49,808 nt of DNA, from contig RXIJ01000032.1 of assembly GCA_004212095.1 (NCBI GenBank), positions 1 through 49,808 on the forward strand, in the 5' to 3' direction. The DNA is from Methanosarcinales archaeon (GTDB lineage Archaea > Halobacteriota > Methanosarcinia > Methanosarcinales > EX4572-44). Position numbers and translations under genes: made by a program. The notes beneath the pieces were generated by a model. The model saw only the letters and a list, made by a program, of their open reading frames with translations. It had not been told where the DNA came from and made no database searches. This document shows, piece by piece, positions 21,735 through 46,362 of the stretch (positions are counted from its first letter, which is position 1; every line of letters begins with the position of its first letter).

Positions 21735-22307
21735 TTATTTCGATGTACCTAAAACTGTCTCGTGGAGTTCATACACATCCGAACCATGACATTTGGTACA
21801 ATACACATTTCGTGAAAGATGTATTTTCACCAGGTCTCCATTGGATGGCTGGAATGAATCCGGAGGTGCTGCATGACAATTTTCACATGTTACATGCCCG
21901 GCTTCTGCTTTTGGTATGCTGAGATCTGTTGCTGGGCCATGACAACTTTCACACTTAAGATTTACAGTGCCAGTTCCAATGTGTATAGGATGTACATCAC
22001 TGCCGTGACATTTGAAGCAGTATTTACCACCTTCTTTATGGGGTAACAACGTTCCTGAATCGACATGACACAAATCACATTTTATTGGTTGAGGAGCTGT
22101 GACAACCGTTGTTGGTTTTGGAGTGGGCTCCGGTGTTTGTACTGGTGTTGTTTTTTCCGGGGTTTCCGGAGCTGTTTTGACAGGAGTTTCCGGAGGTTTT
22201 TCAACCGGTGTTTTTGGATCTATGTCTGTGCAACCCATGGATAGTATTACCATTGCTGCAATAATGAGCACTGTACAGATAATTGGGCCTTTTTTTTTAA
22301 AAATCAT
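21735..22307 (-). CDS. pentaheme c-type cytochrome, lipoprotein-like with a Pro/Thr-rich linker
   Basis: The five motifs are CDLCH, CFKCH, CESCH, CENCH and CTKCH. It has a signal peptide ending LSMGC, followed by PETPVKTAPETPEKTTPVQTPEPTPKPT. ATG 22307 is chosen; the ORF-track extension to 22487 runs through the dispersed repeat. Confidence 0.85.
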   Translation of the reverse strand: MIFKKKGPIICTVLIIAAMVILSMGCTDIDPKTPVEKPPETPVKTAPETPEKTTPVQTPEPTPKPTTVVTAPQPIKCDLCHVDSGTLLPHKEGGKYCFKCHGSDVHPIHIGTGTVNLKCESCHGPATDLSIPKAEAGHVTCENCHAAPPDSFQPSNGDLVKIHLSRNVYCTKCHGSDVYELHETVLGTSK

Positions 22308-22365
22308 AACTATTTCACATTTGGTTATAAGAAAAATGTTGTATTTAAGTGTTTTGATATTGGGT

Positions 22366-22484
22366 GGTTGTAAAGTTATTGGATGTTGGCATTGTTTCGA
22401 CCTGGTTGTATATCCGGGTATAATATCTACTGTTCTCAGGTTCGAACAGACGAAAAAAATAACACCTGAGTAATTTGACAGCCA
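22366..22484 (-). repeat. ~135-bp dispersed element, copy 3 (reverse orientation, with an internal deletion), upstream of the pentaheme gene
   Basis: ggttgtaaagttattggatgttggcattgtttcgacctggttgta...taatttgacagcc aligns with 7175..7321. Confidence 0.8.
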
Positions 22485-22570
22485 CACAAAAAAGAAAGAT
22501 ATTTATGTGGTTATAGGTTTATGAGTAATAATAGTAATTATTAGTAAATTAATTAAGGGGTAATAAAAAA

Positions 22571-23239
22571 ATGAAAGGTAAACATATATTGTTGTTGTCC
22601 TGTAGCATTTTAGCTATTGGACTGTTTATACTGCCCTCAACCCTTTCAATGTTTGTGGGACAGCACACATGGTATAGTGTTAAGAATCCGGATGATATGG
22701 AAAATTTATGTGCAAAGTGTCATCAGCCAGAGGTTGAGGAGTGGAACACAAATTTAGCTCGTGGTGGTGCACATGCAACTTTTGAGGTGAATTACGTAGG
22801 CACTTCAGGGTGCAGTATCTGTCATCAGATTAATGAAACAATACTTGAAACTGATTATGGCTTGAATATTACCTCGTTGAAAGGCTATAACTTTGAAGAT
22901 TTCACACGACAAGGTCTAACCAATACAAGTAATTCGGCTGATTTCCAGGGAAATTGGCGAAATCAGACAACCCCACATGCTGCAATAAAGGTAGATTGTG
23001 GAGACTGTCATTACAATGCAACAGTACAATTGGCCGATTCTAGTTCTGCACACAGTGATTTCTACAATCAATCCACAGGTGCTGCAACCGACAGCTCTGC
23101 ATGTATCGGATGCCATACCATGACCGATATCAATATCACATGGTACAAGTTCGGCGGGCTTAATATCAATGCAAGTATAAACACAACAAGTGAGGACTGG
23201 AATATTACCGTTACCACGAATACGACACTCGTGAATTAA
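22571..23239 (+). CDS. membrane-anchored tetraheme cytochrome (NapC/NrfH-like topology)
   Basis: An N-terminal TM helix is followed by CAKCH, CSICH, CGDCH and CIGCH. It is a paralog of 42210..42977, sharing the N-terminus ...SMF.GQH. Confidence 0.8.
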   Translation: MKGKHILLLSCSILAIGLFILPSTLSMFVGQHTWYSVKNPDDMENLCAKCHQPEVEEWNTNLARGGAHATFEVNYVGTSGCSICHQINETILETDYGLNITSLKGYNFEDFTRQGLTNTSNSADFQGNWRNQTTPHAAIKVDCGDCHYNATVQLADSSSAHSDFYNQSTGAATDSSACIGCHTMTDINITWYKFGGLNINASINTTSEDWNITVTTNTTLVN

Positions 23240-23306
23240 GATGATCTTTGATATTGATCATCTTTAATTTTTTTTAAATATTTAATATTTCTATATATGA
23301 TAGACT

Positions 23307-24080
23307 ATGTCGTTTGTAGAAGAGTTTATTGGGATATTATCATCTTCATTTTTTTATTTATTGTATACCAATCAAATTTTATTAATCTTGTTTTTTTTCA
23401 CGTTAATCTTTTTTATAATTTTACGTAATATACATGTGAGAAATTCCACGTTCTTTCCAGATGTTATTAGTACCTTAATAAAAAAAATCACTTACCAAAA
23501 CCAGAAAAAATCTGTCGAAAGCAGGGTGGGACACTATGGCGAGTTATCAAAAAGACAGAGAGTTTTACCGGTGATTGTTCCACTGTTTATTACGATCTTT
23601 ATTGCATACCTCATCCTTAACCACTACGTATTTCTTGCTATTGTAACTTCAGGCAGCATGTCGCCTGCTCTTGAGGTAGAGGATCTGGTTCTCATACAGA
23701 ACCTGCATGTCAACCCACAACAGGGCGAAATTATCATGTTTAACACAAAAAAAGCGAGTATGCCAGTCATTCATCGGGTATATTCAGTATCCGGGGATGC
23801 CATCAAAACAAAGGGTGACGCAGTAGCGTTTCCTGACGACTGGACTCTAAAAAAAGAAAAGATACAGGGAGAAGCTGTATTATTTCAAGATAAACCGATA
23901 ATAGTTAAGAATATTGGTGCATATCTGTTGTTTGATCCAAATAAAGTACAAATTACAAAATATGGGTCTGAAATGTACAGAGCAAGCCAGATTCTTAAAA
24001 ATGTCAAAAAACTTGGATTTACAATATTTATGATCTGCATACTGCTCTATATTTTCCTTGCTGCGAGCAGCAAACACTAA
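23307..24080 (+). CDS. type I signal peptidase (archaeal/Sec11-type S26B) with an extended N-terminal TM region
   Basis: The catalytic Ser box is TSGSMSPALEVEDLVLIQ, the His box is PVIHRV, and KGDA...D follows. A C-terminal TM helix is present. Confidence 0.8.
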   Translation: MSFVEEFIGILSSSFFYLLYTNQILLILFFFTLIFFIILRNIHVRNSTFFPDVISTLIKKITYQNQKKSVESRVGHYGELSKRQRVLPVIVPLFITIFIAYLILNHYVFLAIVTSGSMSPALEVEDLVLIQNLHVNPQQGEIIMFNTKKASMPVIHRVYSVSGDAIKTKGDAVAFPDDWTLKKEKIQGEAVLFQDKPIIVKNIGAYLLFDPNKVQITKYGSEMYRASQILKNVKKLGFTIFMICILLYIFLAASSKH

Positions 24081-24108
24081 ATAACCATATAATCGTTGTT
24101 GATTTAAG

Positions 24109-25155
24109 ATGAGCGGAAAAACCGGTATTTCATTATTTGGAAAGTTTGGTGCTATCTGCATAGTTATTGCTGGAATTTACCTCATATACCTGTCCTATCA
24201 GCCAGTAATTGACCTGTTGTCCGGAGAAAAATTTGAGCAAAAAGATATTATTATAAATCTAACAATCATGCTGCTTGGAGTGGCTACACTGTGTGGTGGG
24301 ATCGATCTTGTAAGAAGAACAATCGCACTTGAGCAACTGATTGATGTTGGGTTTGAAAGTGAAATTTATACGCGACTTGAACCGATCCTTAAAGAAATTG
24401 CAGGAACTCAGGTGATGATTGATAAAATTGAAGAACGTATGAACAGTATGAACACCAATATTGACCGACTCGGAAAGCGTTCAGTCACTCTCACAATCCA
24501 GGGGGGCGGGTCAGCATACGGCATTGATATTGCTTCGGAAATATCGCGTTTTCTTCGATTGGTTTTGTTAATCAATGCCACTCTTGCAGTATTTTTATTC
24601 CTTTTGAGTTTTACACGTGCTTACACACCGTACCTGATAACAATGCTGTACATCATCTGGTGGCTTGAAATCACATACGATTACAACCTCTGGCAGCGGT
24701 CATCCGCATGGGTTTGGGCATTTATCCCGATACTGACTATCCCAATCACAACGATTCTATTTGAGGTAATCTATGGTGGAGGAACACTCATCGGAAGCAT
24801 GACCCTTGGACTTGTAATGTATGCAACGGCATACTTTACATGGAGCAAGTATATTATCGAGGGATGTTTACCATTTGATTTAAATAAGCTGACAAATAAA
24901 ATTCCAAAAGAAAATAAAGGAATAGCACACCTGACAACACTAAAAGAAAAGCTTACTCGAAAGCGTCACGCAATTTCGACATATTTAATTATAAGTTCAC
25001 TCGTTTTTGGATTATTGTTAGTTTTGCAGATGATTAATATAAAATACAACCTGAAATGGATGCCTGCATATTCACCTGACTATCTGGTACTGACAGGTAT
25101 TTTGCTTGTCGTATCGTATATTATAAGTAACAAATTAAGACGTGGGAAAATATGA
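24109..25155 (+). CDS. polytopic membrane protein, unknown function
   Basis: It has about 8 hydrophobic segments plus a soluble coiled-coil-like loop (IDKIEERMNSMNTNIDRL). Its stop overlaps the giant cytochrome start (ATGA). Confidence 0.7.
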   Translation: MSGKTGISLFGKFGAICIVIAGIYLIYLSYQPVIDLLSGEKFEQKDIIINLTIMLLGVATLCGGIDLVRRTIALEQLIDVGFESEIYTRLEPILKEIAGTQVMIDKIEERMNSMNTNIDRLGKRSVTLTIQGGGSAYGIDIASEISRFLRLVLLINATLAVFLFLLSFTRAYTPYLITMLYIIWWLEITYDYNLWQRSSAWVWAFIPILTIPITTILFEVIYGGGTLIGSMTLGLVMYATAYFTWSKYIIEGCLPFDLNKLTNKIPKENKGIAHLTTLKEKLTRKRHAISTYLIISSLVFGLLLVLQMINIKYNLKWMPAYSPDYLVLTGILLVVSYIISNKLRRGKI

Positions 25156-28100
25156 AAAACGCTTGCACTGGACGAACACTACTACTAATCATCGGTTTTC
25201 TTGTTTTGGTGTCCAGTACCTGTACGGTTATTGTTAGGGCGGAAACGTATACAGTGACACTTGGCTACGGGCAGACACCTTATCAGCTTGGATATCTCTC
25301 AAATGGTGATACCACTGGCTGGAACTGGTGGGATACTGAAAATGGAATGCAGCAGAAAAATCTGGTATTAGTGAGTATTATGGAGAACACTGCACCAGTA
25401 AGCGGCCTTTCACCGCAATCATGGATAAGAGATAGTACAACCAAAAAAAGCGGTGGGTACAGCTGGAACGCTGAGAAAGACACACACAGCTGGCACTATA
25501 TTGATAACTATGATACCACTGGTGCACCATGGCAGGATATAGACCTAACCGGTTATCCGAAAACCACAAGCCTGTCAACAAAAATATTCAACTGGCTCAA
25601 GCGATTATTTATCGGGGCAGAAACATCTTCAGACCAGACGATTAACCTGACATTCTGGAATCAGTACAGGATGATAGATAGCAGAGGCTTTGTTAAAGTA
25701 TCGGAAGACATGGGAGCTACATGGGATACACTTGCAGAATATTCAGGCAACAACAGCGGGTGGGTAGAGGAATCAATCAATCTAACACAATACAGCGGAC
25801 AGAAAATATTTGTAGCATTTCATTTCAGTTCAAATAATAATAATGGTGGATGGTGGATCGACGATATAACAGTTGAGGCATCAGATGGTAATATTATCTT
25901 TAGTAATGGTGCAGAGACCAGAGCTCCTAAACTAACAGCGACAATTTATTATCCGCATTATGATTATGCAGGCGATCGTTTCTCAACAAAATCAGAAACA
26001 ATAGAGATTAGTGAGAACTATATTCACCAACTGTATTATGGAACATTCACGTACCCGGATGATGCTTATGCCGGAAGATACACAATTGATTTTAGCACAA
26101 CGATAGGTTCAGAGGATCTGTCGGCATCCACCAGTTTTAACACCACTTTGTGGGGATGTCAAGCAAGAGGCTGCCATGATTCGTGGAGTCCACAGAGCGA
26201 TTTATCAGTGAGAAATCCGGTTACTGCAATGCACCCGGACAATATCACCTCTAACGTAAATGGTAACTGCCTTACGATGTGTCATAGCACTTATGCATCG
26301 CAGTTCCTTCGTGCAACACCAATTCATCTGCATGACATCAAGTATGGCCATGAAGGTGGATTTATTTATGGAGAAAGTGGTTGGGTGACCATTTTTAATA
26401 ATTCAAACACCAACGTGCAGTTGCATCGTAAAACTTCTGTTGGAAGGCAGATTCCACAGCCCAAGTCCACTGTTCCATCACACGTGACAGATGCAGACTG
26501 CACACAGTGTCACACAAGTTTCATTCACAGTCAAAGCGGAGCGGATACGTACGACATTGCAGTGCCACATTCATTGAATGGGTCATATTTAGGTCGAAGT
26601 GGAGTACACTACAATGTATCATGTGAAGCATGTCATGGAATTTATTATAAGAGTGAGGGACACGGCTTGATTTATCCCCCATTTGATGGAGTAACCACAC
26701 TAAATGATACAATCGGAGACTATGAACCAGAGTTCATGTCATACGAAGCAATAACAAAAACATATATTATTGACGTTGATTCCGGAACAATCAATGTGAC
26801 GGTAGATGGAGACGACCCACTGTATGAAATATTTCTCACATTAATAGGGCCGGTAGATGATGTAAACGGTCTGCAGGATTTAAACACCGGAGATAAATGG
26901 CACGGCACGTATACTGTCCCAAGTGTTAATGGAACTGCTATATTTGCAGAAGGTTCGAAGATATGTTATCCTATTGGTGATAAATTATACACTACAAGTT
27001 TTAATGCTGTTCCAAAAAACGGCACATGGATTGCGAAGATATTTTCCAGTTCACATGGAATATTCAATTACACAATAACATCAAACCATCCCATACAGAG
27101 TAAGCCTGTTATTCATATACCATGGAATTGTAGTGAATGCCACAATCCCGGGGCAAGTGGAGATTTATCAGGAGCTAAGACGTCCAGACCGATACCTCTG
27201 TGGGACAACAGAGGGTTATCGTATACTCATGCTGATACTAATGATGATGGTATGGATGATGTTACATGTCGATTATGTCACGATTCATTCCATGATATTT
27301 CAATCAGGAACTGCACTGACTGCCACACACAGCGACCCGGTGGGCATGCTATGGCAGATTATTATGAAATGGGGTATACTGGTTGCATGCTCTGCCATAA
27401 TGATCCGCATGTTGAACCTGAGGCGGCAGCTGGCGGAAACTGCACCGATTGTCATCTTGAAGGTGGTGCAAATGCAACTTCAGGTATACCGATAGTTAAT
27501 AAAACCGGATTCTTTGGCAGTATTCATCGTAACATCACCGGACAGTTCAGTCAAACAAATTATACCCATATCAGTCGTGTATGCTGGGGCTGTCATGTCA
27601 ATTATACGCAGCAGCTCATCGATTCATCTCACACAAAACGTGTTACTGATTTGCCAGCTTGCGAGGACTGCCATGATACTGCAACTCCATTAAACAGTGA
27701 ATACCTCAACCAGACGCCGCTACAGGTAAGAGAGCATCAGCCAAATGGTGAAGATATACAAACAGGTTCAAACTGTACAATATGCCATAACAAATCATTG
27801 ACAATTGCACCACCAACTGAAAATGTAAAATATCCGCGGGCTAAAAACTACATATCTCACTACGGTAGACAGAGAACTGATATGTGGGTGGTTGAAAACA
27901 ATCAGGTTATAACTCACTGTTCGTACTGTCACACCGGTGGTGGACGCGAGTTTTATTGTGTTTTTGTAGACCCAAGTAATGCTGATATTACACATGGGAC
28001 GAACTGCACATCCTGTCATGGTTCAGGTAGAATCCATGATAAAAGCCTGGAAGTTCCAATTATGAGCAAAGACAATGAAGCATGTTTGGTTTGTCATAGC

Positions 28101-31100
28101 AACAAGATCGAATTTGAAGGGGCTGAATTTAGAACCTCAGCGCATGCAAACATTTTTTGTGTAGATTGTCACACGCCACGCCAGGTATTTAAAGATATTA
28201 TTGTCAACAGAGAATCCTATACGTATAACTTTAGCATAGTATCCAACGTTACATGTCTAAACGCCACACTTGATTGGAATGGAAGCAGCACACTTGATAT
28301 GACCCTGTATGCACCTGATACAAACTATACAGGAACAAGGATAAACATCAGTTCACCACAACAGGGAAATTGGACTGCTATTGTACGTGATGTGAGTGGA
28401 GATGCAGAGTTTACCTTAACAATCGATGTGGACATGAAACATGGTGAAAAATGCAAGGCAAAAATTTGTGAAGAGTGCCACATCAGTGGTTTTGCTGATG
28501 CGCCGATTGTTTACGAACACATTCCTAATAAAAGCAGTGTGCCAACCAATGCTTCATGTGCATTATGTCATGCCCAGGGTGCACATCAGGCCACAACAAT
28601 TGAAATCTCAGCATCCCATTACCTTAAGAAAGAACCTATCGAGACAAGAGACTGCATCAGATGTCATACCGGTATTGTTGATGGCTGGGGAAATGCACCT
28701 GATCCAGGAGACCACGCGCACTACACAACAATTAACAAAACACTGGTAGCAAACCAGAAATGGAAGCTCGTTGACAACTATTCACTTACACTGATCGAAA
28801 CAACACGCGATGCTGCAATATTTAAATTTGAAAAAGATGAAGAGATGCTGCGTGAAGAATTAGTAGTAAAGGGTGATGTATTTAAATACGAAGTTCGCGG
28901 CATTGCACCAGGGAAGACAACCATTGTCAATCTTACGGTAAATAGGTTATTCACAGCAAAAGATCATTATGTTGCAGAGTTGTCAGGAACCATACTTGCA
29001 TCACGCATCCACCGTGAAACCGAAAACAAGGCTTGCTGGGAGTGCCATGACAGCCAATATCGTGCAAACGCGCAAGAAGGCACTGATTACTACGTTCTTA
29101 AAAAGGATATTGAAAACGTAACGCTTGCAAGGATGCCTGTTAACCTCACAGACAATGAAACCATCATGCTTGATATCGGAGAGTCTTTGAACCTTACATG
29201 CGGATACATCCTCTATGTTGCGGATGTAAACACCAAACGAGGTGGTGCAAAGCTTCAATTATACAAGAACGAAACACTGGTCGATGATGTGATAATAAAT
29301 GAAGGATGCTACTTTACATACGAAGAACGGTTGCTTGATCGAAAGATCGATGTTATCAGAGTAAAACTTGACCGTGTTTTTATCGGAGCAACTCCTTCTA
29401 TCATACTAAGTGACATTCGGGTTATTGCAGGGAAACAGAAAACATTGAGTGCAACAAAACAGGTACTGCAATCCGGAATGCCTCTGAAATACCTGCCTCT
29501 TGATAGTTACATAACAGTTGGAGAGAAACCTGGAACATTCCATGTGTACACACTCACACCAGGTGGATACAGTTCTGACTGCATTAGCTGCCATTCCGGA
29601 GATGGAGTTGCACCGGTTAAAATTGATATTGATCTATTCAAACGCGGTGTGCATGCTGGTTTGAAAAAAGATGCAGACTATTCTAGTTTCATCACCGATG
29701 ATGCAAACAAAGCATGCTGGGCATGTCATGGCAATGGCAGCAGTGGTGAACCGGTTAGACATCCGACACCATACTTTGGTAATTGCACGCCGCAAACCTG
29801 TATCCATTGTCATGGACACACAAAGTTTGGGGCAAAGCAGGTTCACACACACTATCAGGGTGCTGAAATCTCAACCACTTCCGCATGCTGGGATTGTCAT
29901 TCAAATATGTTACTGGAAGACAAGCACACACAAGCTTCAGCGTCTCATTATTCAACACGAGAAGACCTGTTAAACACATCAGATTGCAGTGTGTGCCACA
30001 ACAACGAAACCAATGCACCGGAGTGGGGTAGTGCCCCACAGGTTATAAAACACAATTCAAACAATACCTGTACACGCTGCCATGCCGGTGAAGGATTAAC
30101 TAATTTCCATGAGCGCGGCATAACCATAACACGGGAGTGTAAAGACTGCCATGTGAACAAAGAACGTTGTGATCAGCTCAATCTTACAGTCATCCGCACT
30201 CATTATCCAGGTGCACCAGAAGATAGTGCAGACACCATGAAAAATTATAACTACACGTGTGAGATGTGTCACAATGCGACAAATACCACGCTGCATGAAT
30301 CCCTTGAAGTCGTGCGCGGTAATCAGACAATGGGTTACTGCTTCCAGTGCCACAGCATCGAAGGAGAGTTTTCACACAAACCAGAAGCCCAGATAAAAGT
30401 ATTCAGGCATGGGTGCGGGATAAAAGTAAAATCCGGTTGCGAAGTTTGCCATGATCCAAAAGGCGTGAGTATATTCCATGCACCAAGCATGGTCGGTAAA
30501 ACAGGCATTGTTGGTGCAAGAAACTTTGCACTCGACTGCATTGAATGCCATAAAGAACACGAGGGAAGGGAATATCAACCATTTGAAGGCATCAGGTGCA
30601 TCGACTGCCATACCGAATATGGGGCATCCCATTACTCGACTGCAGAGATAGAGATTGTAAACAGAACCGAAACATGTGAGCTGTGCCATAACCCGGAAGC
30701 GGATTTTTATCACAATCTTACGCACATCGAAGCCAATGTCAGTAAGGAAGCATTAAGACCGTGTTATGTCTGTCACGGCGAAGAAGTTGATCTTTTCAAT
30801 GAAACACAACAAAAAGCAGTAGGCATCACCCGTGGAACTATGGCAACGATAGGCAACGTCTCAGACAAGCCGCTTAGAACCTGCAGCTCCTGTCACAATG
30901 CCACCGGTGAAAGCAGATTCCATTTTGACACATATTCACGTGGTACTGTGCAGAACCCTGACTGGAAGGACTGGACCCCCGGAAATATAACAGGATGCAA
31001 GGACTGTCACACATACCACGGCGGATACTCACCATTCAATGCAACAAATATGGGAACGGAAGGAAGATCCCCCAGGGGCACAGCACACGGTTTTGCACCA

Positions 31101-33439: not shown

Positions 33440-33445
33440 TTGGTT

Positions 33446-37300: not shown

Positions 37301-40300
37301 AACGTGACAGGGAAGACTACATACCAGTCGATGAACTGCACCGCAATTAGCAAGTGGGACGTGCTGTATGGTAAGACCAGGACATATCGGAATGTCACGA
37401 CCACGATCACAGAACCGGGAGTTACAATTCTCATAGACACCGGTTACACGCCAAACGGCAAGTGTTACTACTGCCATGTGGATAAATACGTGTTTACAAA
37501 CACGTCGCACTGGACGGAGTATGAAGAGACTGTCCTGGAGGGGGATGAGTACACCCCTGGGCGGTGCGTTGACTGTCACAATGAGAACGATTCCATTGAT
37601 ATTCCGCACGGAAACGAGAGCGGAAAGGATCTGTTGTACACTCAAAGCCCACAGTTATGCTACACCGGCAGAACTGGTGGTCTTAACTGCCACGGCGCGA
37701 ATGCAACACAGACGCGGCTTGTTCAGGAGACAGAGTTCAACCGGACGACCCATCACCCGCTCGGGGACGGAAAACTATCATGCAAGGCATGCCATGACAA
37801 TCATGGAACTGAGTATCGGTATGATCTGTTGAAGTATTATACAAATGGTACCAATCCGGACACTGGTTCATTGGAGCAGGGATATGACTCGAGTTATTAT
37901 GCGCTCTGCTTCGTGTGTCATCTCGAGGAAAAACTTGTGGCAAAGATGTCAGGCGAGACCGGTCATCTTGCAAACTACATGAACCAGACGAACTTTCGGG
38001 ATGAGTATTATGTCACATGGGGTTTCAGTTCCGGAGGTACTGGTGGATCTACAAAATTCAAGAACATCCATTCTCCGCAGGAGGAAGCAGGTTTATGGGA
38101 CACCACGCACCCAGAGTATAACTGCTATTCTTGTCATAACCCACATGGCAGCGATAATCCGGCAACGACGCGTTTTATAGCAAATGGGGGACCCTTAAAT
38201 TACACCTACATCACCAATGTCTCGCCTCCGGATAACATATTATGGGAAGTATTGAATTATGCGAACTGGAATAATACAACCTTAAACAAAGGCGGTGGAC
38301 TTTATCTGTCAGGGCCTGGGGCTGGTTGCGGTTGCCACCCCCCAGACTGGGCATCCCTTAAGACTAATTATTTCACCTACCGCACATACATCAACTACAC
38401 CCCTGCTGGCGGTGCGGGCTGCCTCGAGTGCCACGACAACAATGCTTCCGCGTACAACACCGACCCGATCCGTCCGATCGTGAACCTGACCGCGGTAAAA
38501 CTTGCGACACACACCAATCTAAGCGGTGCGTTCAGAACAGGTAGCATTCTTCAGGGAACTGACAAAAATTTCACTGAATGGCTCGAATATCGCGAGTACA
38601 CCATTCCACAGATCGCGAATATTACCGAAGACAATGCAATCTGTTGGACATGCCACTGCACCAATGGAACACCACCAAGTCCGTATTTCCATCCCGATCG
38701 AGCACTGAATCCGTACAAATGTGCAAAGTGCCATGGACCTTACTATGGTCAGCCGCCGCACACGCAGGGGCTTGTTGCAGCGGTCGATAACCATGGTCCG
38801 ACCACGAAGGGCGCGGAATCGATCCTTATCCAGACCAATGTCAGAATTGGCGGTTCATGTGACGACTGCCATGCGTCAAGCAAACTGCCAGATAATATGA
38901 TAGATACTTCCGATCCAAACGATGATCTCGAGGTCTGGAAATGGGGATCCGGAGAAGATGGTTATGGTGACGACAACCATTGGCGCCCTTATCAAGGCAG
39001 ATCAACGATGGGCGACGTCTCGCACTACGGACTGAACAAAACACAGGGGCTTGCACTTGAAATTGATAACCCGCTATTCGACACCTCTGACTGTCTCGTC
39101 TGCCATTGCAATTCCACAAACGGAACGATCTGGGGAAACGCCACAAACATCAGCGGGAATATGTACGGCGCTGATACCACTAACGTCTCTGAGTGTTACA
39201 CCTACTGTCATGTCAGACCTGATTGGGTCAGTAGTGTCAACGAGAGCACACTTACACACTTCCACAACAAATCGATATACGCAGGCGGCGGTCCGAACTG
39301 TGTCTTATGCCATGATGTGACTAGTATTTATGGTGTGCAGTCGCTCGTAAATTCCACTGCGATAGCAGAGGGCATTCACGGAAACGTGCTCAACAACACA
39401 CTCGTTCAGGAAAGCTACAGGATGGATAACAGGTCAAACCCGTGCTGGGGCTGTCACCAGAGCGATGGCAAGATCCCTAAAGGTATGGGTGACCGGAACG
39501 GAGCCACAGACGTAGATGGCAACGGAATCATAACAGTTGAGGAACTGCCCTACACCTGCGAGGACTGTCATGCACGAAGCGAGGCATGGAGCGGTGCAAC
39601 GAGCGATGGACATACGTGGGAGAGTGCAAGCGATCCCGCTCTCGGTCTGAGCAGGCTGCCCCCTGAGATTACTGCCCATTATCCGAACTCAACACATGTC
39701 AGGACGACCCATCACAGCGACAATGGCAGGTGCGTTGACTGCCATAACAACAGCTTTAATTCCGATAACAATGATACCGCTTACAAGGAACTTGGACACA
39801 CGATTTTCTCAGGTGTCTCACACTACGGTACCTCTAAAGATCTCCTCACCCCAACCAAGATGTGTCGATACTGCCACGATAACACAACAAGTGCAAGAGC
39901 CAACGCAACACTCTATGGCAATGCAACCGCAAACAAGCACGGCAACTTCACAGACGAAGCAAATCCGGATGACGGCTGTTACCGCTGCCACACACAAAAC
40001 GAGACACCTATTGACTTCCACAACATGAACGCAGGGGGTATCCCTGGGGATCCTGACTGCCTCAAGTGTCATAGCACCAACGGGACTTCGGAAAGACGCA
40101 GGATTGATGAGATTGCATATATGGGTGCGATCCACGCCGGGATGAACAATGCGAGTGTCGATGGCGACATCAACAAGTCGTGCTGGGTCTGTCATTTCCC
40201 GGAAGGTGTTGGCATGGATGAGCACAGCAACCGGCGAGAGCCTGCCTACCACTGTTACGACTGCCACAACAAAGACAACACCACAGTATTCGGCAATGTG

Positions 40301-41797
40301 AGCGATGCACCTGAGGTGCACAACCACTTCAAGAGTGGAACCTGCATAGAGGCATACTGGACACGCCCCACAGATTCAGACTCATGCATGGGCTGCCACG
40401 ACCAGTCAGAGATGCGCTATACATTCGATGAAAACGAGACGAATCCATACTTCACTAACTTCTCGATTACATCTCATTACGGCGACAATCGAACAGATAT
40501 TGTCACTACATATATCGAAAATGGCACGGAAGATTATTGCGGTTACTGCCATCAGAATATGTCGACTGTATTCGTAGAGCAGCAATCCATGAAAAATGTC
40601 AGCCACTATCATAATCAGGCGTGTGATGAGTGCCATAGCGTAGGTAGGCTCCACAGTGACACATTACAACGGGTACAAACTGATTCGAACTGCACCAACT
40701 GCCATGCAACATATGGATCTGTTCAGAAGGGCTTGAAGTATAAAATTAATGTCACAGCAGTAAATTTAGGAGTGCATGAAAATGTGAATGAGAACATGAA
40801 TTCAGTTGCAATGACAGTAGGGGATGTGAACAACTCCAAGTGTTGGGGTTGCCATGTACCAGAGGGAGCGTTACCGGAAGGTGGGCACAGAGACACCTTT
40901 AACAACGATGCATATCTCTGCTATGACTGCCACAACGGAACCAAAGCGTACCAGAACGTGACGAACGCAACCGCTGTTTACAACCACTTTAAAAGCGGCA
41001 TCAACATCTATGCGCGCACCACCGCGGAGACGAACTCGGAGTCCTGTGGATACGGCTGCCACAACCTCACCACCATGAAAGTACCTGGTTTTGATGCTGG
41101 CGGAAACGCAACCTATCTTCAGAACCTCTCACAGGCATCACACTACCCCAAAAGCCGTCCGGACATCGCCATTCAGAGCAATCTCTCAGACTGCACATGG
41201 TGCCACAGGAATTCGACAAACGAGTTCATTGAAATCTTTGAGTGTGCTGGTTCGCAGAATTACACCGAGAATATTCCGCATGCAACCAGAACAGAATCCT
41301 GCACCATCACAGAGTGCCACAACACAGGACGGATACACGACCAGAACCTGACAATCCCAACTATATCATGGGAGCAGGACTGCGGCAACTGCCATTTTGG
41401 ATTGGCTGATTCTGCTGCAAGTAAATATTATGTGAATGAGACGATGTTTAATTATGGCGTGCATGCAACTGTAAAATGTACAGAATGTCATATCTATACC
41501 GATCAGCCTGTTAACTGGCATCCAATCGAGGAATATACATGGAAATGGTGCGAGTGCTGCCATTCGTATCAGTCAGACTTAATCAACGAGAGCGATCGAC
41601 ACAATGTGACAGATAATCCACTAACATATCTGGTTGAGGAAACATGCGTACTCGAGATTGCAAACTGCACAACCTGCCATAATGCAACGGCTTATGAAAA
41701 TGCAAAGTCAAACTTCAACTCAAGCGCTGAACATGAGTGCAGATGGTGCCATGAATATCCGGACAAAGGCAATAAAACAATCCAGGGCTGGTATTGA
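34376..41797 (+). CDS. giant fusion protein (2473 aa): right-handed parallel beta-helix region + 31-heme c-type cytochrome region
   Basis: A signal peptide starts at alternative ATG 34439 (MSCASILFLSACILIIFCGLAGA). Residues ~45-900 are full of PbH1/NosD-like coils (N.T...N.I..N...GI.L..S..N.I..N). From CYYCH onward I hand-counted 31 CxxCH plus about 6 spacing variants. No C-terminal TM helix is present. Confidence 0.9.
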   Translation: MMFRHQITGLLQDGIIRKIHFMSCASILFLSACILIIFCGLAGAADYDEISVTTANDEAWSTNLSNSVSNVAGNIIVNDGAVLLIGNATIRMASTYSNKYSIIVCDKGTLNVNGSTITRNNYYYGWRYESGSHGNVANSTVEFCIYNNGFKIETNEAVPLFNVTFDHGDVGYSSDCYGIYMNSASNASIRNCTIKTSSGQSYSNRRYTYGIYIKNSDCCNLTGNTVTDSGDDGIFVQNGDNATLLINNLSGNREGIRLDSCPNSNLSSNIVVDSSKHGINITSSQNCILRSNVIINCSNYYHLYVTGNYDQDIDTTNTVNGGRVYYNCIDSNVTITDSNIGHVTIVDCSDVWFTGCTIHNGDGIRIIGSSSNVSIRNSTIENNTMYGINLESTSWNNITSVIIENNTKQGVYLAGSSNNIINDSDILNNNNYGVHSEGSSSYNNINHNNITNNTQGGICLDGAGHDDVTYNNVLENRGDGGICIGTHHYSSLSTQNTLANNTILSNNKTGIGVYTNYNYLSNNTISSLSGQYALKVSYAMNSFYNYIWRNNTANGEQINYYYDEHDKITELDDNIIENKYLSASNVSNVGKITLINCTNLIVRDCEFSNSSNYGIFLRNSDNNNLTNNTISNNYNGIWLYGSSENNIIDLNTISPSNRYGAYFEEDSDYNNIKDSSFAAMTFNGMYISSDHTTITSTTISSVDEYGLYTKKAHYTNLTNITITSISSHGVYLDTSNYITITDSNVTANNKGVNCFKSDHAEIANTTIRGEDGIYMSKSNWGNLTNNAIDATLRGIFLNTSKDQNLIENNITNYTITGVLLEEYSTNTTIIGNDFQRNSSEFDITLNDSNGCVIAPNNTVTANYTFYLTNDTRLATLDTVFNKTKVCYEDTSNLTLMWRIDVLCWDNYHKEAIMSNLTVQYSDLSDANGLLCWEGEISAGAAVEGQQNGRLSGNPFDYWGPPTSGDNWLPIIEYKENVTGKTTYQSMNCTAISKWDVLYGKTRTYRNVTTTITEPGVTILIDTGYTPNGKCYYCHVDKYVFTNTSHWTEYEETVLEGDEYTPGRCVDCHNENDSIDIPHGNESGKDLLYTQSPQLCYTGRTGGLNCHGANATQTRLVQETEFNRTTHHPLGDGKLSCKACHDNHGTEYRYDLLKYYTNGTNPDTGSLEQGYDSSYYALCFVCHLEEKLVAKMSGETGHLANYMNQTNFRDEYYVTWGFSSGGTGGSTKFKNIHSPQEEAGLWDTTHPEYNCYSCHNPHGSDNPATTRFIANGGPLNYTYITNVSPPDNILWEVLNYANWNNTTLNKGGGLYLSGPGAGCGCHPPDWASLKTNYFTYRTYINYTPAGGAGCLECHDNNASAYNTDPIRPIVNLTAVKLATHTNLSGAFRTGSILQGTDKNFTEWLEYREYTIPQIANITEDNAICWTCHCTNGTPPSPYFHPDRALNPYKCAKCHGPYYGQPPHTQGLVAAVDNHGPTTKGAESILIQTNVRIGGSCDDCHASSKLPDNMIDTSDPNDDLEVWKWGSGEDGYGDDNHWRPYQGRSTMGDVSHYGLNKTQGLALEIDNPLFDTSDCLVCHCNSTNGTIWGNATNISGNMYGADTTNVSECYTYCHVRPDWVSSVNESTLTHFHNKSIYAGGGPNCVLCHDVTSIYGVQSLVNSTAIAEGIHGNVLNNTLVQESYRMDNRSNPCWGCHQSDGKIPKGMGDRNGATDVDGNGIITVEELPYTCEDCHARSEAWSGATSDGHTWESASDPALGLSRLPPEITAHYPNSTHVRTTHHSDNGRCVDCHNNSFNSDNNDTAYKELGHTIFSGVSHYGTSKDLLTPTKMCRYCHDNTTSARANATLYGNATANKHGNFTDEANPDDGCYRCHTQNETPIDFHNMNAGGIPGDPDCLKCHSTNGTSERRRIDEIAYMGAIHAGMNNASVDGDINKSCWVCHFPEGVGMDEHSNRREPAYHCYDCHNKDNTTVFGNVSDAPEVHNHFKSGTCIEAYWTRPTDSDSCMGCHDQSEMRYTFDENETNPYFTNFSITSHYGDNRTDIVTTYIENGTEDYCGYCHQNMSTVFVEQQSMKNVSHYHNQACDECHSVGRLHSDTLQRVQTDSNCTNCHATYGSVQKGLKYKINVTAVNLGVHENVNENMNSVAMTVGDVNNSKCWGCHVPEGALPEGGHRDTFNNDAYLCYDCHNGTKAYQNVTNATAVYNHFKSGINIYARTTAETNSESCGYGCHNLTTMKVPGFDAGGNATYLQNLSQASHYPKSRPDIAIQSNLSDCTWCHRNSTNEFIEIFECAGSQNYTENIPHATRTESCTITECHNTGRIHDQNLTIPTISWEQDCGNCHFGLADSAASKYYVNETMFNYGVHATVKCTECHIYTDQPVNWHPIEEYTWKWCECCHSYQSDLINESDRHNVTDNPLTYLVEETCVLEIANCTTCHNATAYENAKSNFNSSAEHECRWCHEYPDKGNKTIQGWY
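34510..37080 (+). other. parallel beta-helix (PbH1/CASH/NosD-like) repeat region of the fusion protein
   Basis: It contains dozens of ~22-25-aa coils, for example NCTIKTSSG.., NLTGNTVTDSGDDGIFVQNGDNATLLINNLSGNREGIRLDSCPNSNLSSNIVVDSSKHGINITSSQNCILRSNVI. Confidence 0.7.
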
Positions 41798-41803
41798 AAA
41801 ACC

Positions 41804-42220
41804 ATGGGGTTAAAAAAAGTAATTATAGCTGTAATTGCGGTCATGTTAATCATAGGTATAGCCGGTGCGATGTTTTCTAACAGCCATGAATTATACAGCT
41901 ATAAAAATGAGACTGACCCGTGGAAGTTTTGCAACAAGTGCCATCCTTCATCAGTAGCAAATGTTGGTGCTGGTGTACATAGTGATGTGAATTGTTTATG
42001 CCATGGCTACAATCCAAACACAACTCCACCGGTTAATATGATACACAATCTTACCCGGAATATTTATTGTACCAATTGTCACTCAAATTACAATGAAAAA
42101 ACTGGTGATATTACACTCTATACAGGAATAAGTGGATTAAACCAGTCTGCACATTACATAATAAGTAGATCAGATTCCCAATTATATAATAATAGTATGG
42201 AGTTCTTCAATGAAACGTAG
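41804..42220 (+). CDS. small membrane-anchored c-type cytochrome (2 CxxCH + 1 CxCH)
   Basis: An N-terminal TM helix is followed by CNKCH and CTNCH, plus CLCH. Confidence 0.75.
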   Translation: MGLKKVIIAVIAVMLIIGIAGAMFSNSHELYSYKNETDPWKFCNKCHPSSVANVGAGVHSDVNCLCHGYNPNTTPPVNMIHNLTRNIYCTNCHSNYNEKTGDITLYTGISGLNQSAHYIISRSDSQLYNNSMEFFNET

Positions 42221-42977
42221 TAATATTATATTATTACTATTTGCCTTAATGTCGCTTGCAATGTTTGTGATGCCTGACATATTTTCAATGTTTAGTGGGC
42301 AGCACGTCTTTTATAATCAGATAAACTGTCAGAAATGCCATGAAGAAGAATACGGAGAGGTGTGGGCTACATCAGCAGCAGGGGATGCACACATCAGAGC
42401 TGCAAACAACACCAATTACACCACATACCTTGTAATTGGCGGTATTAATTATCATCAATCAAGTGGCACCATTAACACAGTAGAAGATAAGATCTGGACA
42501 TGGAATGGAAGTTTGTGGATCAATGACACAGAATCAAGATTGGAAAAGTTAGATGCGGATGGCAGCAATGAAATCGATGGAAATGAAATCTGCCACCTCT
42601 GCCATAATTCATCACTGGCAGATAAACACAGTCATGGACTTATCGTAAGAACGTGCGATGATGACTGGTGCCATGGAAATAGAAATTATACGTTCAATGA
42701 TCCTCAGTTATTCAACACATTGCCAACAGTTGATGCTGGAAATATTTTGAATGAATCGAACAATCTTCATAATGCATTCTATCTAAGTCTGGTTAATGAG
42801 CCAACCGGATTTGTGGCAGGTGAACCATTCAACCATACTCCAGGAAATCTTGCCGGTGATTATACTTCAAAGAGCTATCTGGCATGCATTAGTTGTCACT
42901 CAACTGTCCGGGTAGATATAACAATCGCCCAAAGTAGGTCCAATCATACAGGCGAAAAACGGCGAAAATATTCATAA
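42210..42977 (+). CDS. membrane-anchored multiheme cytochrome, paralog of 22571..23239
   Basis: It has the same N-terminus (LAMFVMPDIFSMFSGQHVFY). The motifs are CQKCH, CHLCH, CISCH and CDDDWCH, the last at the position of the paralog's CGDCH. Confidence 0.8.
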   Translation: MKRSNIILLLFALMSLAMFVMPDIFSMFSGQHVFYNQINCQKCHEEEYGEVWATSAAGDAHIRAANNTNYTTYLVIGGINYHQSSGTINTVEDKIWTWNGSLWINDTESRLEKLDADGSNEIDGNEICHLCHNSSLADKHSHGLIVRTCDDDWCHGNRNYTFNDPQLFNTLPTVDAGNILNESNNLHNAFYLSLVNEPTGFVAGEPFNHTPGNLAGDYTSKSYLACISCHSTVRVDITIAQSRSNHTGEKRRKYS

Positions 42978-43387
42978 ATCGCTCTTATTTTATGTGATAG
43001 TGTTGACGCTGCAATGCCTCCAAATATTGTGCTTAAAATATCCGGGATTTTAAGAGTGTTTACAATAAACTGTTGGAATGCGATGAAGTTTTTTGGATGA
43101 CACGTAATACCATGAATAATCACCGGTTTAAAATAGTAAATAAACAGATATCCGGTAAAAAGCGACATTACAGCAACCACTCCAAAATAGCATAGACCAA
43201 TTGCTGAAATATCCCTATTATTCTCTTTATTGTATCTGCTCAAAACCACAAGCCCTATTCCACTAACAAACCCGGCGATTACAGCAACAATTGGTGCAAA
43301 ATAATTAACAAGTAAAACAAATAGGCTATAGATAATACCTCCAGCAACAACACTTGCTGTGGTTGCAATCAAAAAATTCCTTATCAT
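42944..43387 (-). CDS. small membrane protein (about 4 TM), unknown function
   Basis: It has hydrophobic segments throughout. It converges on and overlaps the 3' end of 42210..42977. Confidence 0.5.
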   Translation of the reverse strand: MIRNFLIATTASVVAGGIIYSLFVLLVNYFAPIVAVIAGFVSGIGLVVLSRYNKENNRDISAIGLCYFGVVAVMSLFTGYLFIYYFKPVIIHGITCHPKNFIAFQQFIVNTLKIPDILSTIFGGIAASTLSHKIRAIYEYFRRFSPV

Positions 43388-43683: not shown

Positions 43684-43808
43684 CCATATGCTGGGCTTTA
43701 ATTCTTCTTTCTCTTGATTCTATTTATGTAAAAAAATAAAAGAAAGAGAGTGAGAATTTACTCCCCCCTGTCTTTTAATCTATGTTTTATCGCTGTGTAG
43801 GTTTGTTT

Positions 43809-44617: not shown

Positions 44618-44750
44618 GGGGCTGTAAACTCTCCGGGTGTTATACCAGAACTCTAATTTCTTTCATGCGTTCAAACATAGAACAGCAGATATTATACCTG
44701 AATACACAACCAAGTCGAAACAATGCCAACACCCAATAACTTTACGAGTC
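44618..44750 (+). repeat. ~135-bp dispersed element, copy 4 (forward orientation), upstream of the lipoprotein/cytochrome operon
   Basis: ggggctgtaaactctccgggtgttataccagaactctaatttctttcatgcgttcaaac...caataactttacgagtc. Confidence 0.85.
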
Positions 44751-44796
44751 CATAATTTGCAAAAGCTTATATTGTATTAAATATTATATTTTGATT

Positions 44797-45198
44797 ATGA
44801 GGTCGATTATTGTTGTTATATTATTCATGGTGCTGTTCTTTGCGTCTGGTTGTGTTGATAAGGATAAACCAGTCGTAACAACCAAAATAACAATCATGGA
44901 AACAGACGGGGAACCTCAAATCACACAACTACAGGTGGAAACAGACAGTGTAAACAGATTAGAAGAATATCGCGACATGTCACCACCATTTCCATGTGTA
45001 GCTCTTACCGTCATAAAAGACATGCGAGAAATCGGCTACCGACGATACAAAAGCTACACAGGCGAGGGTGAATACGAGATAACAACAGACCTTAGAACAG
45101 TACCAGATACTGGAAACACTGTCGATGTGATTGTAAAGGTGTATGATGGAATGGGTAACACTCTTTGCAAAAAAAGGACACCACTGCAGTGGCAATGA
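44797..45198 (+). CDS. secreted lipoprotein-like protein, unknown function
   Basis: The signal peptide has a lipobox-like FFASGC. A TATA-like aaaagcttatattg lies at 44761..44774. The stop overlaps the next start (ATGA). Confidence 0.6.
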   Translation: MRSIIVVILFMVLFFASGCVDKDKPVVTTKITIMETDGEPQITQLQVETDSVNRLEEYRDMSPPFPCVALTVIKDMREIGYRRYKSYTGEGEYEITTDLRTVPDTGNTVDVIVKVYDGMGNTLCKKRTPLQWQ

Positions 45199-45683
45199 AA
45201 GATATACCATACATCATAACAATGGTTCTGACAGGTGTAATTCTTATATCCAGTATCGTGTATATTGCAGCCACAACCAACGTTTTTACATCAAGCAATG
45301 TCACAAACCCACAAATAATAATACCTGAATTCGAAGAGATACCGGAACAAGCAATTGAATGTAATATCTGCCATAAGCAACCGGAAAACCTCACCAGACA
45401 TAAAGACGGGGGGAAATATTGTAAAGCATGTCATGGGGCAGACCTGCATGGCCTGCATACCAGTGATAAAACAGTGGACTTGTCCTGTCAATACTGCCAC
45501 ACAGACAATGCAACCACACCTCAACGTCTGCCTGGTCATGAAAGTATCTGTGATACCTGTCATAATTACTACGATCCGCTGAAGCCAAGCTCTGGGAATA
45601 TCATAGACATACATGTCAAAAAAGGCTATACATGCGATCTTTGTCACATACAGGATCTTCAAAGCCTCCATGAACGATCTTAG
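45195..45683 (+). CDS. membrane-anchored pentaheme c-type cytochrome
   Basis: The motifs are CNICH, CKACH, CQYCH, CDTCH and CDLCH. HKDGGKYCKACHGADLHGLH parallels HKEGGKYCFKCHGSDVHPIH in 21735..22307. Confidence 0.85.
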   Translation: MKDIPYIITMVLTGVILISSIVYIAATTNVFTSSNVTNPQIIIPEFEEIPEQAIECNICHKQPENLTRHKDGGKYCKACHGADLHGLHTSDKTVDLSCQYCHTDNATTPQRLPGHESICDTCHNYYDPLKPSSGNIIDIHVKKGYTCDLCHIQDLQSLHERS

Positions 45684-45777
45684 AATTCCAGCATCGCCGA
45701 TGGAAAACAAAAACTCAAGATTTATAAATGATGGGGTTGGAACTACATAATTAAATTATAAAAGGTTATAAATTTCA

Positions 45778-46362
45778 ATGAATAGTGTCAAAGGATTTAA
45801 AATAGGAATCATCGTAGTAATAATTGTTATTATCTCTACAGCAGTTATCATGTATCAACCCGATACAGATAAAACAAAAGCAAGCACAATAGATGAAATA
45901 ACCACACCGTTGCCAGCTCCAGTTACAACAGTAGTTGCAATACCTTCTTCCACGACCACTTCGCAGACAGATACAACATATAATTCATGTGAGAATTGCC
46001 ATTTAACAGATAAACGCAGCATACCTCAAGCAGATAGCCTGCACAATGAAATGGCACGATACTGCATGCTCTGCCATACGATAGAACACAACTCCCATCC
46101 AATGGAAGATGAGGGTGTTTCATGTAACGATTGCCATGGAGAAAAGGGTGCAGTTCCTACTCTGGAAGAGGGTGCAGTTAGATGTGGAAAATGTCATAGC
46201 TATCCAGACCCAATAGAAACATGCAATGGTAACTTAATTACAGTGCATCGTCCACGTGGTGTAGCATGTTCTAACTGTCACGGAGACGATGTGTTGGCAA
46301 TACACCTATCTGGTAAGAATGTGTACATTGAGGATATGCTGCAATATCTTGAGCGAACATAG
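45778..46362 (+). CDS. membrane-anchored pentaheme c-type cytochrome
   Basis: The motifs are CENCH, CMLCH, CNDCH, CGKCH and CSNCH. It has an N-terminal TM helix and a Thr/Pro-rich linker, and the same family layout as 45195 and 21735. Confidence 0.85.
   Translation: MNSVKGFKIGIIVVIIVIISTAVIMYQPDTDKTKASTIDEITTPLPAPVTTVVAIPSSTTTSQTDTTYNSCENCHLTDKRSIPQADSLHNEMARYCMLCHTIEHNSHPMEDEGVSCNDCHGEKGAVPTLEEGAVRCGKCHSYPDPIETCNGNLITVHRPRGVACSNCHGDDVLAIHLSGKNVYIEDMLQYLERT

Follow-up and report, generated by a model that had tools for sequence, protein, structure and literature searches.

The window analysed here is a stretch of 49,808 nucleotides from a Methanosarcinales archaeon (contig RXIJ01000032.1, assembly GCA_004212095.1), and at positions 21735-46362 it carries an island of eight multiheme cytochrome (MHC) genes. 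In island order these are cyt5_A (21735..22307, minus strand) and, on the plus strand, cyt4 (22571..23239), MHC-B (25152..31583), MHC-C (34376..41797), cyt2 (41804..42220), cyt3 (42210..42977), cyt5_B (45195..45683) and cyt5_C (45778..46362). Their translations contain 5, 4, 35, 31, 2, 3, 5 and 5 CxxCH heme-binding motifs, respectively, and both these counts and their sum of 90 are identical to those given in the initial annotation of this DNA. A six-frame scan of the whole 49.8-kb window found 96 CxxCH motifs, 90 of them in frame within the eight cytochrome genes, two in other frames inside the island and four outside it. Shuffling the residues of the eight cytochromes left 0.48 motifs on average and never more than 4, against the 90 observed. 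Motifs with other spacings (CxCH, Cx3CH, Cx4CH and Cx9CH types), of which the initial annotation had counted about ten, number nine across the eight proteins: one Cx4CH and one Cx3CH in MHC-B, five in MHC-C (CxCH, two Cx3CH, Cx4CH and Cx9CH), one CxCH in cyt2 and one Cx4CH in cyt3. Exactly one N-terminal hydrophobic segment is present in each of the eight proteins, in line with the earlier statement that every cytochrome starts with a signal or anchor helix, and MHC-B has a second segment at its extreme C-terminus.

Five genes form one tightly packed unit on the plus strand (operon 1, 22571-33439): cyt4, a signal peptidase I of the archaeal/endoplasmic reticulum type (23307..24080), a polytopic membrane protein of 348 amino acids (aa; 24109..25155), MHC-B and CcmF2, a paralog of the CcmF-type heme lyases (31580..33439). 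The gaps are 67 nucleotides (nt) between cyt4 and the peptidase gene and 28 nt between the latter and the membrane protein gene, whose stop overlaps the start of MHC-B by 4 nt, just as the stop of MHC-B overlaps the start of CcmF2. MHC-C lies 0.9 kb downstream of CcmF2 and opens operon 2 (34376-42977), which continues with cyt2 and cyt3, two genes overlapping by 11 nt. A cluster of MHC-B, CcmF2, a signal peptidase and a protein named '8x TMH' (TMH, transmembrane helix) was described by Chadwick et al. (2022, PLoS Biol, Figs 11-12; PMC9012536), who reported it for Candidatus Argoarchaeum too.

The 2143-aa product of 25152..31583 is the MHC-B of anaerobic methanotrophic archaea (ANME). In PMC9012536 this protein is defined by an S-layer domain, a linker heme motif, a heme-free 'peptidase M6-like' N-terminus and a C-terminal transmembrane helix, and all four features are found here. 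The S-layer (DUF1608) domain is recognised by Pfam PF07752 (43.8 bits vs. a cutoff of 30, E = 2.1e-11), and a profile of the orthologs (residues 1160-1485) matches the structure of the Methanosarcina acetivorans S-layer protein MA0829 (3U2G, E = 4.6e-7). Searched as a single sequence, this region found no match in the PDB; 3U2G was reached with the ortholog profile only, and it is only the second half of the domain that aligns to it, the first half being assigned by internal similarity in the alignment. The linker heme is the CxxCH at residue 1295, invariant in 12 orthologs and flanked by two halves that resemble each other, are about 120-180 residues long and carry no other heme motif. The N-terminal part, which precedes the first canonical heme motif at residue 450, contains a marginal match to Pfam InhA-like_MAM (PF20773, residues 195-262, 27.1 bits vs. 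a cutoff of 26.9). There is no HExxH anywhere in MHC-B, so that the M6-like part is a non-catalytic domain only. The C-terminal hydrophobic helix occupies residues 2120-2138 of 2143. The CxxCH motifs are laid out symmetrically, with 17 before the S-layer domain, one inside it and 17 after it, and in the 12 full-length orthologs (49-93% identity) 33 of the 35 are invariant, together with both variant motifs (Cx4CH and Cx3CH).

The second giant, of 2473 aa, is the ANME MHC-C as characterised in PMC9012536. It begins with about 1000 heme-free residues of right-handed beta-helix (pectin-lyase-like; Pfam Beta_helix E = 1.4e-55 in six stretches, NosD E = 3.1e-45), and its 31 CxxCH motifs and five variants follow from residue 1030 onwards. 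No PF07752 S-layer match and no C-terminal helix were found in this protein, the sole hydrophobic segment being at residues 24-42. All 31 hemes are conserved in the ortholog from Candidatus Argoarchaeum ethanivorans, and at 78% aa identity MHC-C is the least conserved gene of the island (87-94% for the other genes compared, 84% for orf179, described below). It also stands apart in composition: the GC content at third codon positions (GC3) is 0.548, compared with 0.27-0.49 in the other 37 genes of the window (0.38 in MHC-B, 0.32 in CcmF2), and the GC content of the window climbs to 0.50 at 37-41 kb. The A. ethanivorans ortholog has the same anomaly, with a GC3 of 0.548. The composition and the low conservation point to either an old lateral acquisition or a codon bias specific to this gene. 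In ANME-3 HMMV2, a related Methanosarcinaceae metagenome-assembled genome (MAG) and Methanoperedenaceae FeB_1, an MHC-C-like region and the C-terminal two-thirds of MHC-B make up a single fused protein, encoded immediately ahead of CcmF2. Since the two giants are fused in some lineages and adjacent here, their arrangement argues that they work together, with the beta-helix part presumably outermost.

The heme lyase and the signal peptidase announced by the initial annotation are both borne out by profile and structure searches. CcmF2 matches Pfam Cytochrom_C_asm (E = 7.5e-16) and the Thermus CcmF structure 6ZMQ (E = 4.7e-28). Its WWD motif, WxGFWQWDP (W226, Q227, W228, D229, P230), and the histidines H164, H247, H288 and H468 do not vary among 22 family members, and the motif and the first three histidines align to 6ZMQ. 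In functional lyases of the CcmF type, two of the four conserved histidines are heme-b ligands and two are periplasmic, and the spacing seen here resembles that of H173/H261/H303/H491 in the Escherichia coli protein. Because the WWD motif and all four histidines are invariant, CcmF2 looks catalytically competent. A search of 5.8 billion proteins placed 66 clusters at or above 550 bits, the next at 244 bits and bacterial CcmF at no more than 139 bits, and an exact look-up of the window protein in public assemblies gave no record. By this score gap and its position after MHC-B, the product of 31580..33439 is identified as the CcmF2 of Chadwick et al. Relatives were collected with a CcmF2 profile from one genome per GTDB species, which gave 20 archaeal loci, and in all 20 an MHC-B-type gene ends at the start of CcmF2. 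In its account of the cluster, PMC9012536 treats CcmF2 as a separate CcmF clade that is confined to ANME and Argoarchaeum and always stands beside MHC-B, and suggests that it serves MHC-B owing to the size of this protein or to its modified heme motifs.

The signal peptidase scores 58 bits against the NCBIfam archaeal signal peptidase I model (TIGR02228, sigpep_I_arch; cutoff 51.85) and also matches Pfam Peptidase_S26. Its catalytic residues S117 (GSMSP), H156 (VIHR) and D171 (GDA) are invariant in 11 orthologs and are of the Ser/His(/Asp) rather than the Ser/Lys type. A family-specific N-terminal extension of about 85 residues brings in an extra membrane helix, and the protein has three hydrophobic segments in all. 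The 348-aa membrane protein has no Pfam or NCBIfam match and is equated, by its position and properties, with the '8x TMH' protein that Chadwick et al. describe. Its homologs fall into 94 clusters, none of them with a functional name or a Pfam domain and a few named only 'hypothetical protein'; W184, W185, W203 and W245 are invariant. The gene adjoins MHC-B-like genes in several arrangements, and a role in heme handling has been proposed for the protein in PMC9012536.

The first gene of operon 1, cyt4, encodes a tetraheme cytochrome of 222 aa that the initial annotation had presented as a quinol-facing anchor. A profile of its orthologs matches PDB entry 8E5G in two stretches (E = 2.2e-22), and the window protein alone does so at E = 5.5e-12. 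This entry is AvECN, the extracellular cytochrome nanowire of Archaeoglobus veneficus (PMC12954529). Across 35 sequences cyt4 conserves its four CxxCH motifs and four further histidines (H32, H68, H136, H161). P22 and S26 are invariant and T24 nearly so in these 35 members, and the three residues correspond to positions -5, -3 and -1 of a classical signal peptidase I site. This site terminates the hydrophobic helix, which therefore probably serves as a signal peptide and is cut off instead of anchoring the protein. By profile comparison, cyt4 is a homolog of the AvECN nanowire subunit, and cyt3 is a cyt4 paralog with the same N-terminal motif (P..S.F.GQH). The description of AvECN is reportedly that of Baquero et al. 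in Cell in 2023. The literature covered, in parts and with the original AvECN paper outside it, contained no statement that an AvECN homolog heads the MHC-B operon. According to a 2026 review (PMC13046784), Methanoperedenaceae possess AvECN homologs and no filaments have been seen in them.

Two further observations concern relatives of cyt4. The second heme site reads G-C-F-C-H (CxCH) in the orthologs at L015:353-1042, L013:1008-1724, L016:1010-1723, L009:962-1654 and L004:993-1706 (the L numbers denote the loci fetched for comparison), whereas the window and the GoM-Arc1 copies keep CSICH. On an archaeal metagenome contig, the gene for a distant relative of cyt4 and AvECN (32% identity) precedes three PMT_2-type glycosyltransferase genes (L024:8001-13248) in place of the peptidase and 8x TMH genes, a neighbourhood that hints at cytochrome glycosylation in that lineage.

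The comparison of relatives identifies the host and bears on the integrity of the assembly. The best relative of CcmF2 is that of Candidatus Argoarchaeum ethanivorans Eth-Arch1 (contig RPGO01000030.1, 91% aa identity), followed by those of the GoM-Arc1 genomes Methanosarcinales ex4572_44 and GoM-Arc1_E37 (58-59%) and of Methanoperedens, ANME-2 and ANME-3 genomes (43-49%). The host is a GoM-Arc1/Argoarchaeum relative, that is, a relative of an ethane oxidiser sister to Methanoperedens, and not an ANME-2 archaeon proper or a metal reducer of the Archaeoglobales. The window is collinear with RPGO01000030.1 over about 26 kb (17314-43320), with nucleotide identities of 93.2% at 17314-22362, 91.8% at 22356-34107, 76% at 34252-34843 and 84.8% at 35001-43320, and the two differ in structure only by about 3.1 kb inserted in the A. 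ethanivorans contig. Because the contig of A. ethanivorans was assembled independently and is collinear at these identities, the window is assigned to another species within the genus-level group of A. ethanivorans, and a chimeric assembly, which the initial annotation had asked to be checked, is excluded on this comparison.

Nor are the genes scattered in relatives. The order cyt4, peptidase, 8x TMH, MHC-B and CcmF2 recurs in ten loci (L001, L002, L004, L009, L010, L012, L013, L014, L015 and L016) from GoM-Arc1, Methanoperedens-like, ANME-2 and other Methanosarcinales genomes. Three of these (L004, L009, L012) have a divergent pair of mem147 (minus strand) and orf135 (plus strand) directly upstream of cyt4. 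The distant locus L032, in which MHC-B is 38% identical, shows the contiguous order cyt2, cyt3, orf135, cyt4, peptidase, 8x TMH and MHC-B, and cyt2 stands upstream of cyt4 in L010 as well. By these placements in L004, L009, L012 and L032, the small genes spread over the right half of the island are part of the MHC-B module in other genomes. In ANME-3 (L017, L018), the gene immediately before the fused giant encodes a cyt5_B homolog. L027 and L031 have a series made up of an MHC-B-like gene, a second MHC, CcmF and Rpp14, with the 8x TMH gene after it. In A. ethanivorans, cyt5_A has an ortholog at the same place (L030, 4472-5044) and cyt2 one with 91% identity.

We read the island, with a probability of roughly 0.8, as a gene island for extracellular electron transfer in an alkane-oxidising archaeon that resembles Candidatus Argoarchaeum (GoM-Arc1), built from known ANME modules. 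This reading stands on domain architectures, conserved heme sites and catalytic residues, operon packing and synteny, which were observed directly. Domains and synteny agree here with the initial annotation, which had seen a cytochrome island of the ANME/Methanoperedens type for extracellular electron transfer with a dedicated CcmF and signal peptidase. The localisation of the proteins, the electron path and the acceptor, which would be a sulfate-reducing partner or a mineral, follow the published model. Electrons would leave the membrane carrier through a component outside the genes of this window and pass through small cytochromes, for which the pentaheme paralogs are candidates, to the inner half of MHC-B. 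The C-terminal helix would anchor MHC-B in the cytoplasmic membrane. Because its C-terminus would lie in the membrane and because of the order of its domains, about 17 of its hemes would span the space below the S-layer, and about 17, together with the non-catalytic MAM-like domain, would lie outside; the linker heme would carry the electrons across. Beyond the S-layer, they would travel along the outer half of MHC-B and through MHC-C, perhaps also through AvECN-like filaments, to the partner or the mineral. The secreted MHC-C would come from operon 2, and its 31-heme chain would hang from the beta-helix of about 1000 residues, whose probable function is to bind a surface or a partner cell. 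On both sides of the S-layer, the AvECN-like and pentaheme proteins may relay electrons or form filaments. CcmF2 would attach heme to MHC-B, probably including the two invariant Cx3CH and Cx4CH sites, and the signal peptidase would remove the signal peptides.

Several points weigh against this reading. Profile searches found no cytochrome b, NapH-like or other membrane quinol/methanophenazine oxidase in the island or the rest of the window. The conduit is thus incomplete as encoded here, and the description of the locus as a complete inside-to-outside conduit cannot be upheld. In an ANME-2c culture, transcription of large MHCs was low according to PMC9012536, and a sulfur shuttle rather than direct electron transfer had been proposed for Ca. 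Argoarchaeum (per Hahn et al. 2020). MHC-C, with a codon composition unlike that of its neighbours, may have a separate history. The predicted structures add little: the AlphaFold2 (AF2) model of cyt4 (35 sequences) has a mean predicted local distance difference test score (pLDDT) of 55 and a predicted template modelling score (pTM) of 0.30, too poor for a comparison of folds, and a Foldseek search of the PDB with it gave one meaningless match. The AF2 model of the 8x TMH protein (45 homologs; pLDDT 55, pTM 0.32) is likewise too poor for a test of its fold. This low-confidence model has ten helices (H9-345), some of them too short or too long for single transmembrane spans, vs. six hydrophobic segments by hydropathy.

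A self-sufficient conduit would be encoded if cyt4 were an anchored quinol (methanophenazine) dehydrogenase of the NapC/NirT/CymA type that feeds MHC-B and then MHC-C. One N-terminal hydrophobic helix with four hemes is indeed the layout of CymA, the invariant H32 lies a few residues past the helix, weak similarities to NapC/NirT (E = 0.0052) and NrfH (E = 0.006 to 0.035) can be detected, and PMC9012536 notes that a CymA-like small MHC could do the job. However, all these scores are far under the curated cutoffs (Pfam Cytochrom_NNT 17.0 bits vs. 24.1; NCBIfam NrfH 16.6 bits vs. 134.2; PDB NrfH 2J7A at E = 0.035 with the family profile), whereas AvECN is matched twenty orders of magnitude better, over both halves and the N-terminal motif. 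Moreover, the P22/T24/S26 signal peptidase I site lies at the end of the helix, and a dedicated peptidase is encoded by the next gene. We consider the anchor role improbable, and the earlier assignment of cyt4 to it is not retained. The acceptor is a separate question. The same machinery could serve respiration of an insoluble metal oxide or a humic substance rather than transfer to a sulfate-reducing partner, in keeping with orthologous clusters in the Methanoperedenaceae MAGs FeB_1 (L019) and MnB_21 (L008), with the reduction of Fe(III) and Mn(IV) by Methanoperedenaceae via MHCs (reviewed in PMC13046784), and with the remark in PMC9012536 that comparable giants are otherwise restricted to the iron-reducing genera Geoglobus and Ferroglobus. 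Against this, cultures of GoM-Arc1 archaea have been obtained together with sulfate-reducing partners, and the sequence itself does not distinguish between acceptors; a metal or humic acceptor is possible, with the odds running against it.

The giants could also be mainly adhesins or surface-remodelling proteins, with a beta-helix that binds or cleaves carbohydrates and a MAM-like domain, and with heme chains that are secondary or redox-sensing. The roughly 1000 heme-free residues of beta-helix/NosD repeats in MHC-C and the MAM-like domain of MHC-B would fit such a role; MHC-C is the fastest-evolving gene of the island, as expected for an exposed recognition protein, and recognition of partner cells by MHC-C has been suggested in PMC9012536. 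Yet the heme sites number 31 to 37 in each giant and hardly vary even between distant lineages, a dedicated heme lyase is encoded, and the missing HExxH leaves no M6 protease activity. Adhesion and electron transfer are, besides, not mutually exclusive, and we regard a mainly adhesive role as very unlikely. An assembly chimera or chance clustering of motifs could be suspected from the shift in composition inside the region (GC 0.50 at 37-41 kb), but about 26 kb are collinear with the independent A. ethanivorans assembly at 76-93% nucleotide identity, the GC3 anomaly is shared by the MHC-C ortholog there, and 90 in-frame motifs stand against 0.48 expected; this explanation is practically out of the question. 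Returning to the island as electron transfer hardware, operon 1 invites a tentative extension, rather doubtful at present, in which cyt4 would be a filament subunit of the AvECN type, the peptidase and the 8x TMH protein its processing and assembly machinery, and MHC-B the S-layer socket that charges the filament. If so, GoM-Arc1 and ANME-2 archaea would build cytochrome nanowires rooted at a defined S-layer conduit, and a single operon would be a handle for the long-sought conductive link in methane- and ethane-oxidising consortia.

The remaining genes of the island are small. The pentaheme cytochromes cyt5_A, cyt5_B and cyt5_C are mutual paralogs, with Pfam matches to Cytochrome_C7 and c3_2 just above cutoff in cyt5_A, to c3_2 in cyt5_B and to Cytochrome_C7 in cyt5_C; a profile of the three found only generic c3/c7/NrfH-like matches in the PDB. 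Long Pro/Thr- or Ser/Thr-rich tethers occur in two of the three: the N-terminal helix of cyt5_A ends in a lipobox-like SMGC and is followed by a Pro/Thr-rich linker of about 50 residues, and cyt5_C has a Ser/Thr-rich linker. Cyt5_B and cyt5_C both have an N-terminal helix, as does the small cytochrome cyt2. Between operon 2 and these two genes lie three genes on the minus strand, mem147 (42944..43387), orf91 (43408-43683) and orf174 (43809-44333), and then orf135 (44791..45198, plus strand), whose stop overlaps the start of cyt5_B by 4 nt. Orf135 is a putative lipoprotein with an ASGC lipobox-like signal and a weak match to a lipoprotein-family signal region. Mem147 is a small membrane protein with hydrophobic segments and without a family match in Pfam and profile searches; hydropathy and absent family matches thus agree with the earlier mention of several unassigned membrane proteins in the island. 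Orf91 and orf174 have no family matches and no homologs among the fetched loci. They are placed between conserved island genes, beside a copy of the repeat described below, and are not assigned to the cytochrome system.

Between the two operons, 390 nt upstream of MHC-C, orf179 (33446..33985, minus strand) converges on CcmF2 and encodes a small cytoplasmic protein without a signal peptide or a transmembrane helix. It had been called a V4R protein, an identity that we do not retain: the window protein shows no Pfam V4R (PF02830) match at E values up to 10, and only one of nine homologs touches this family (E = 0.0019). The only Pfam match is ATC_hydrolase (E = 0.015), and a search of the PDB gave none. 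Homologs of orf179 adjoin CcmF2 in L002, L014, L015, L017 and L019.

A repeat resembling miniature inverted-repeat transposable elements (MITE-like), about 130-150 bp long and bounded by terminal inverted repeats of some 25 bp (GGGGnTGTAAAGTTATTGGGTGTT ... ATAACACCCGAAGAGTTTACAGCCCC), is present in the window in four intergenic copies: 4501-4611 (minus strand), 7176-7308 (plus), 22366-22495 (plus) and 44620-44745 (minus). One copy is directly upstream of cyt4 and another upstream of orf135. Further copies were found at L014:732-861, L030:6499-6627 and L030:8213-8338. The repeat has no match in Rfam, a scan of the window with which yielded only a tRNA. The insertion of about 3.1 kb that is present only in A. 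ethanivorans (L030:5101-8199) lies between cyt5_A and cyt4 and contains DDE-transposase fragments, three small open reading frames (ORFs) and two copies of a short repeat; two MITE-like copies flank part of this insertion, which contains an insertion sequence, at the same site. Immediately upstream of the island, at 17994-21663, is a partner-switching, stressosome-like module of two STAS proteins, two HATPase_c kinases, a SpoIIE phosphatase and an RsbU_N+GAF protein, in the same order as in A. ethanivorans. Farther upstream, a gene at 8440-9549 encodes a protein with three PASTA domains (E = 1e-34), here on an archaeal contig, and it is preceded by two ORFs without family matches, a tRNA gene (7049-7122, minus strand) and a MITE-like copy. 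The local GC content at 7049-9549 is slightly raised (0.44-0.45), and the region possibly represents an integrated element.

For the transfer of electrons from methane- and short-chain-alkane-oxidising archaea to partner bacteria or minerals, a step that governs a large hydrocarbon sink in the sea, giant S-layer cytochromes are the foremost candidates. The window provides the cluster in a second copy of the Argoarchaeum type, with all heme sites and catalytic residues conserved, and this strengthens the case for ANME-like hardware over a sulfur shuttle in ethane oxidisers. The nanowire-subunit homology of the first operon gene offers a concrete candidate for an extracellular wire in the consortia. 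The system is not the only partly described one that it had been held to be: the cluster, its parts, its proposed role and its presence in Ca. Argoarchaeum are already published, MHC-C being detailed as well, in PMC9012536. The points added here are the AvECN homology of the first operon gene and its cleavage site, the 17 + 1 + 17 layout of MHC-B and the compositional oddity of MHC-C.

Set beside known systems, the island is closest to the cluster of Chadwick et al. (PMC9012536), with which it shares gene content and order, the architecture of MHC-B and the position of CcmF2 directly downstream. Compared with the cluster of A. ethanivorans, the window represents another species, with 91-93% aa identity for the cluster proteins and about 92% at the nucleotide level. 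Compared with the published cluster, the operon starts here with a tetraheme AvECN-homolog gene that the sections of PMC9012536 covered here do not discuss, and the M6-like part of MHC-B lacks HExxH. MHC-C likewise agrees with its published counterpart in the N-terminal beta-helix, the long heme chain and the lack of an S-layer domain and of a C-terminal helix; however, in the window and in A. ethanivorans the gene is adjacent to the MHC-B operon, rather than located elsewhere or fused, and has the odd GC3 of 0.55. CcmF2 recalls the dedicated lyases of the NrfE/NrfI type, where a paralogous heme lyase also stands beside a presumed client cytochrome with non-standard motifs (here Cx3CH and Cx4CH), but it forms an archaeal clade of its own; it may be specific for the variant motifs, an idea already raised in PMC9012536.

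AvECN, like cyt4, is a tetraheme protein, and its four CxxCH motifs and four extra histidines (GQH, GAH, AHAA, EAH) align with those of cyt4, as does the N-terminal segment LPSTxSxFxGQHxWY of the cyt4 family. AvECN is longer, however (262 vs. 222 aa), and similarity is low beyond the N-terminal 70 residues; its structure has been solved. The MtrCAB and other porin-cytochrome conduits of Shewanella and Geobacter offer a functional parallel, a heme chain that leads through the outermost cell layer and is fed by small periplasmic cytochromes, and weak Pfam matches to MtrC/MtrF domains II/IV were found in both giants. The island nevertheless does not belong to that family, as there is no porin and no outer membrane here, and the S-layer domain is fused into the cytochrome itself.

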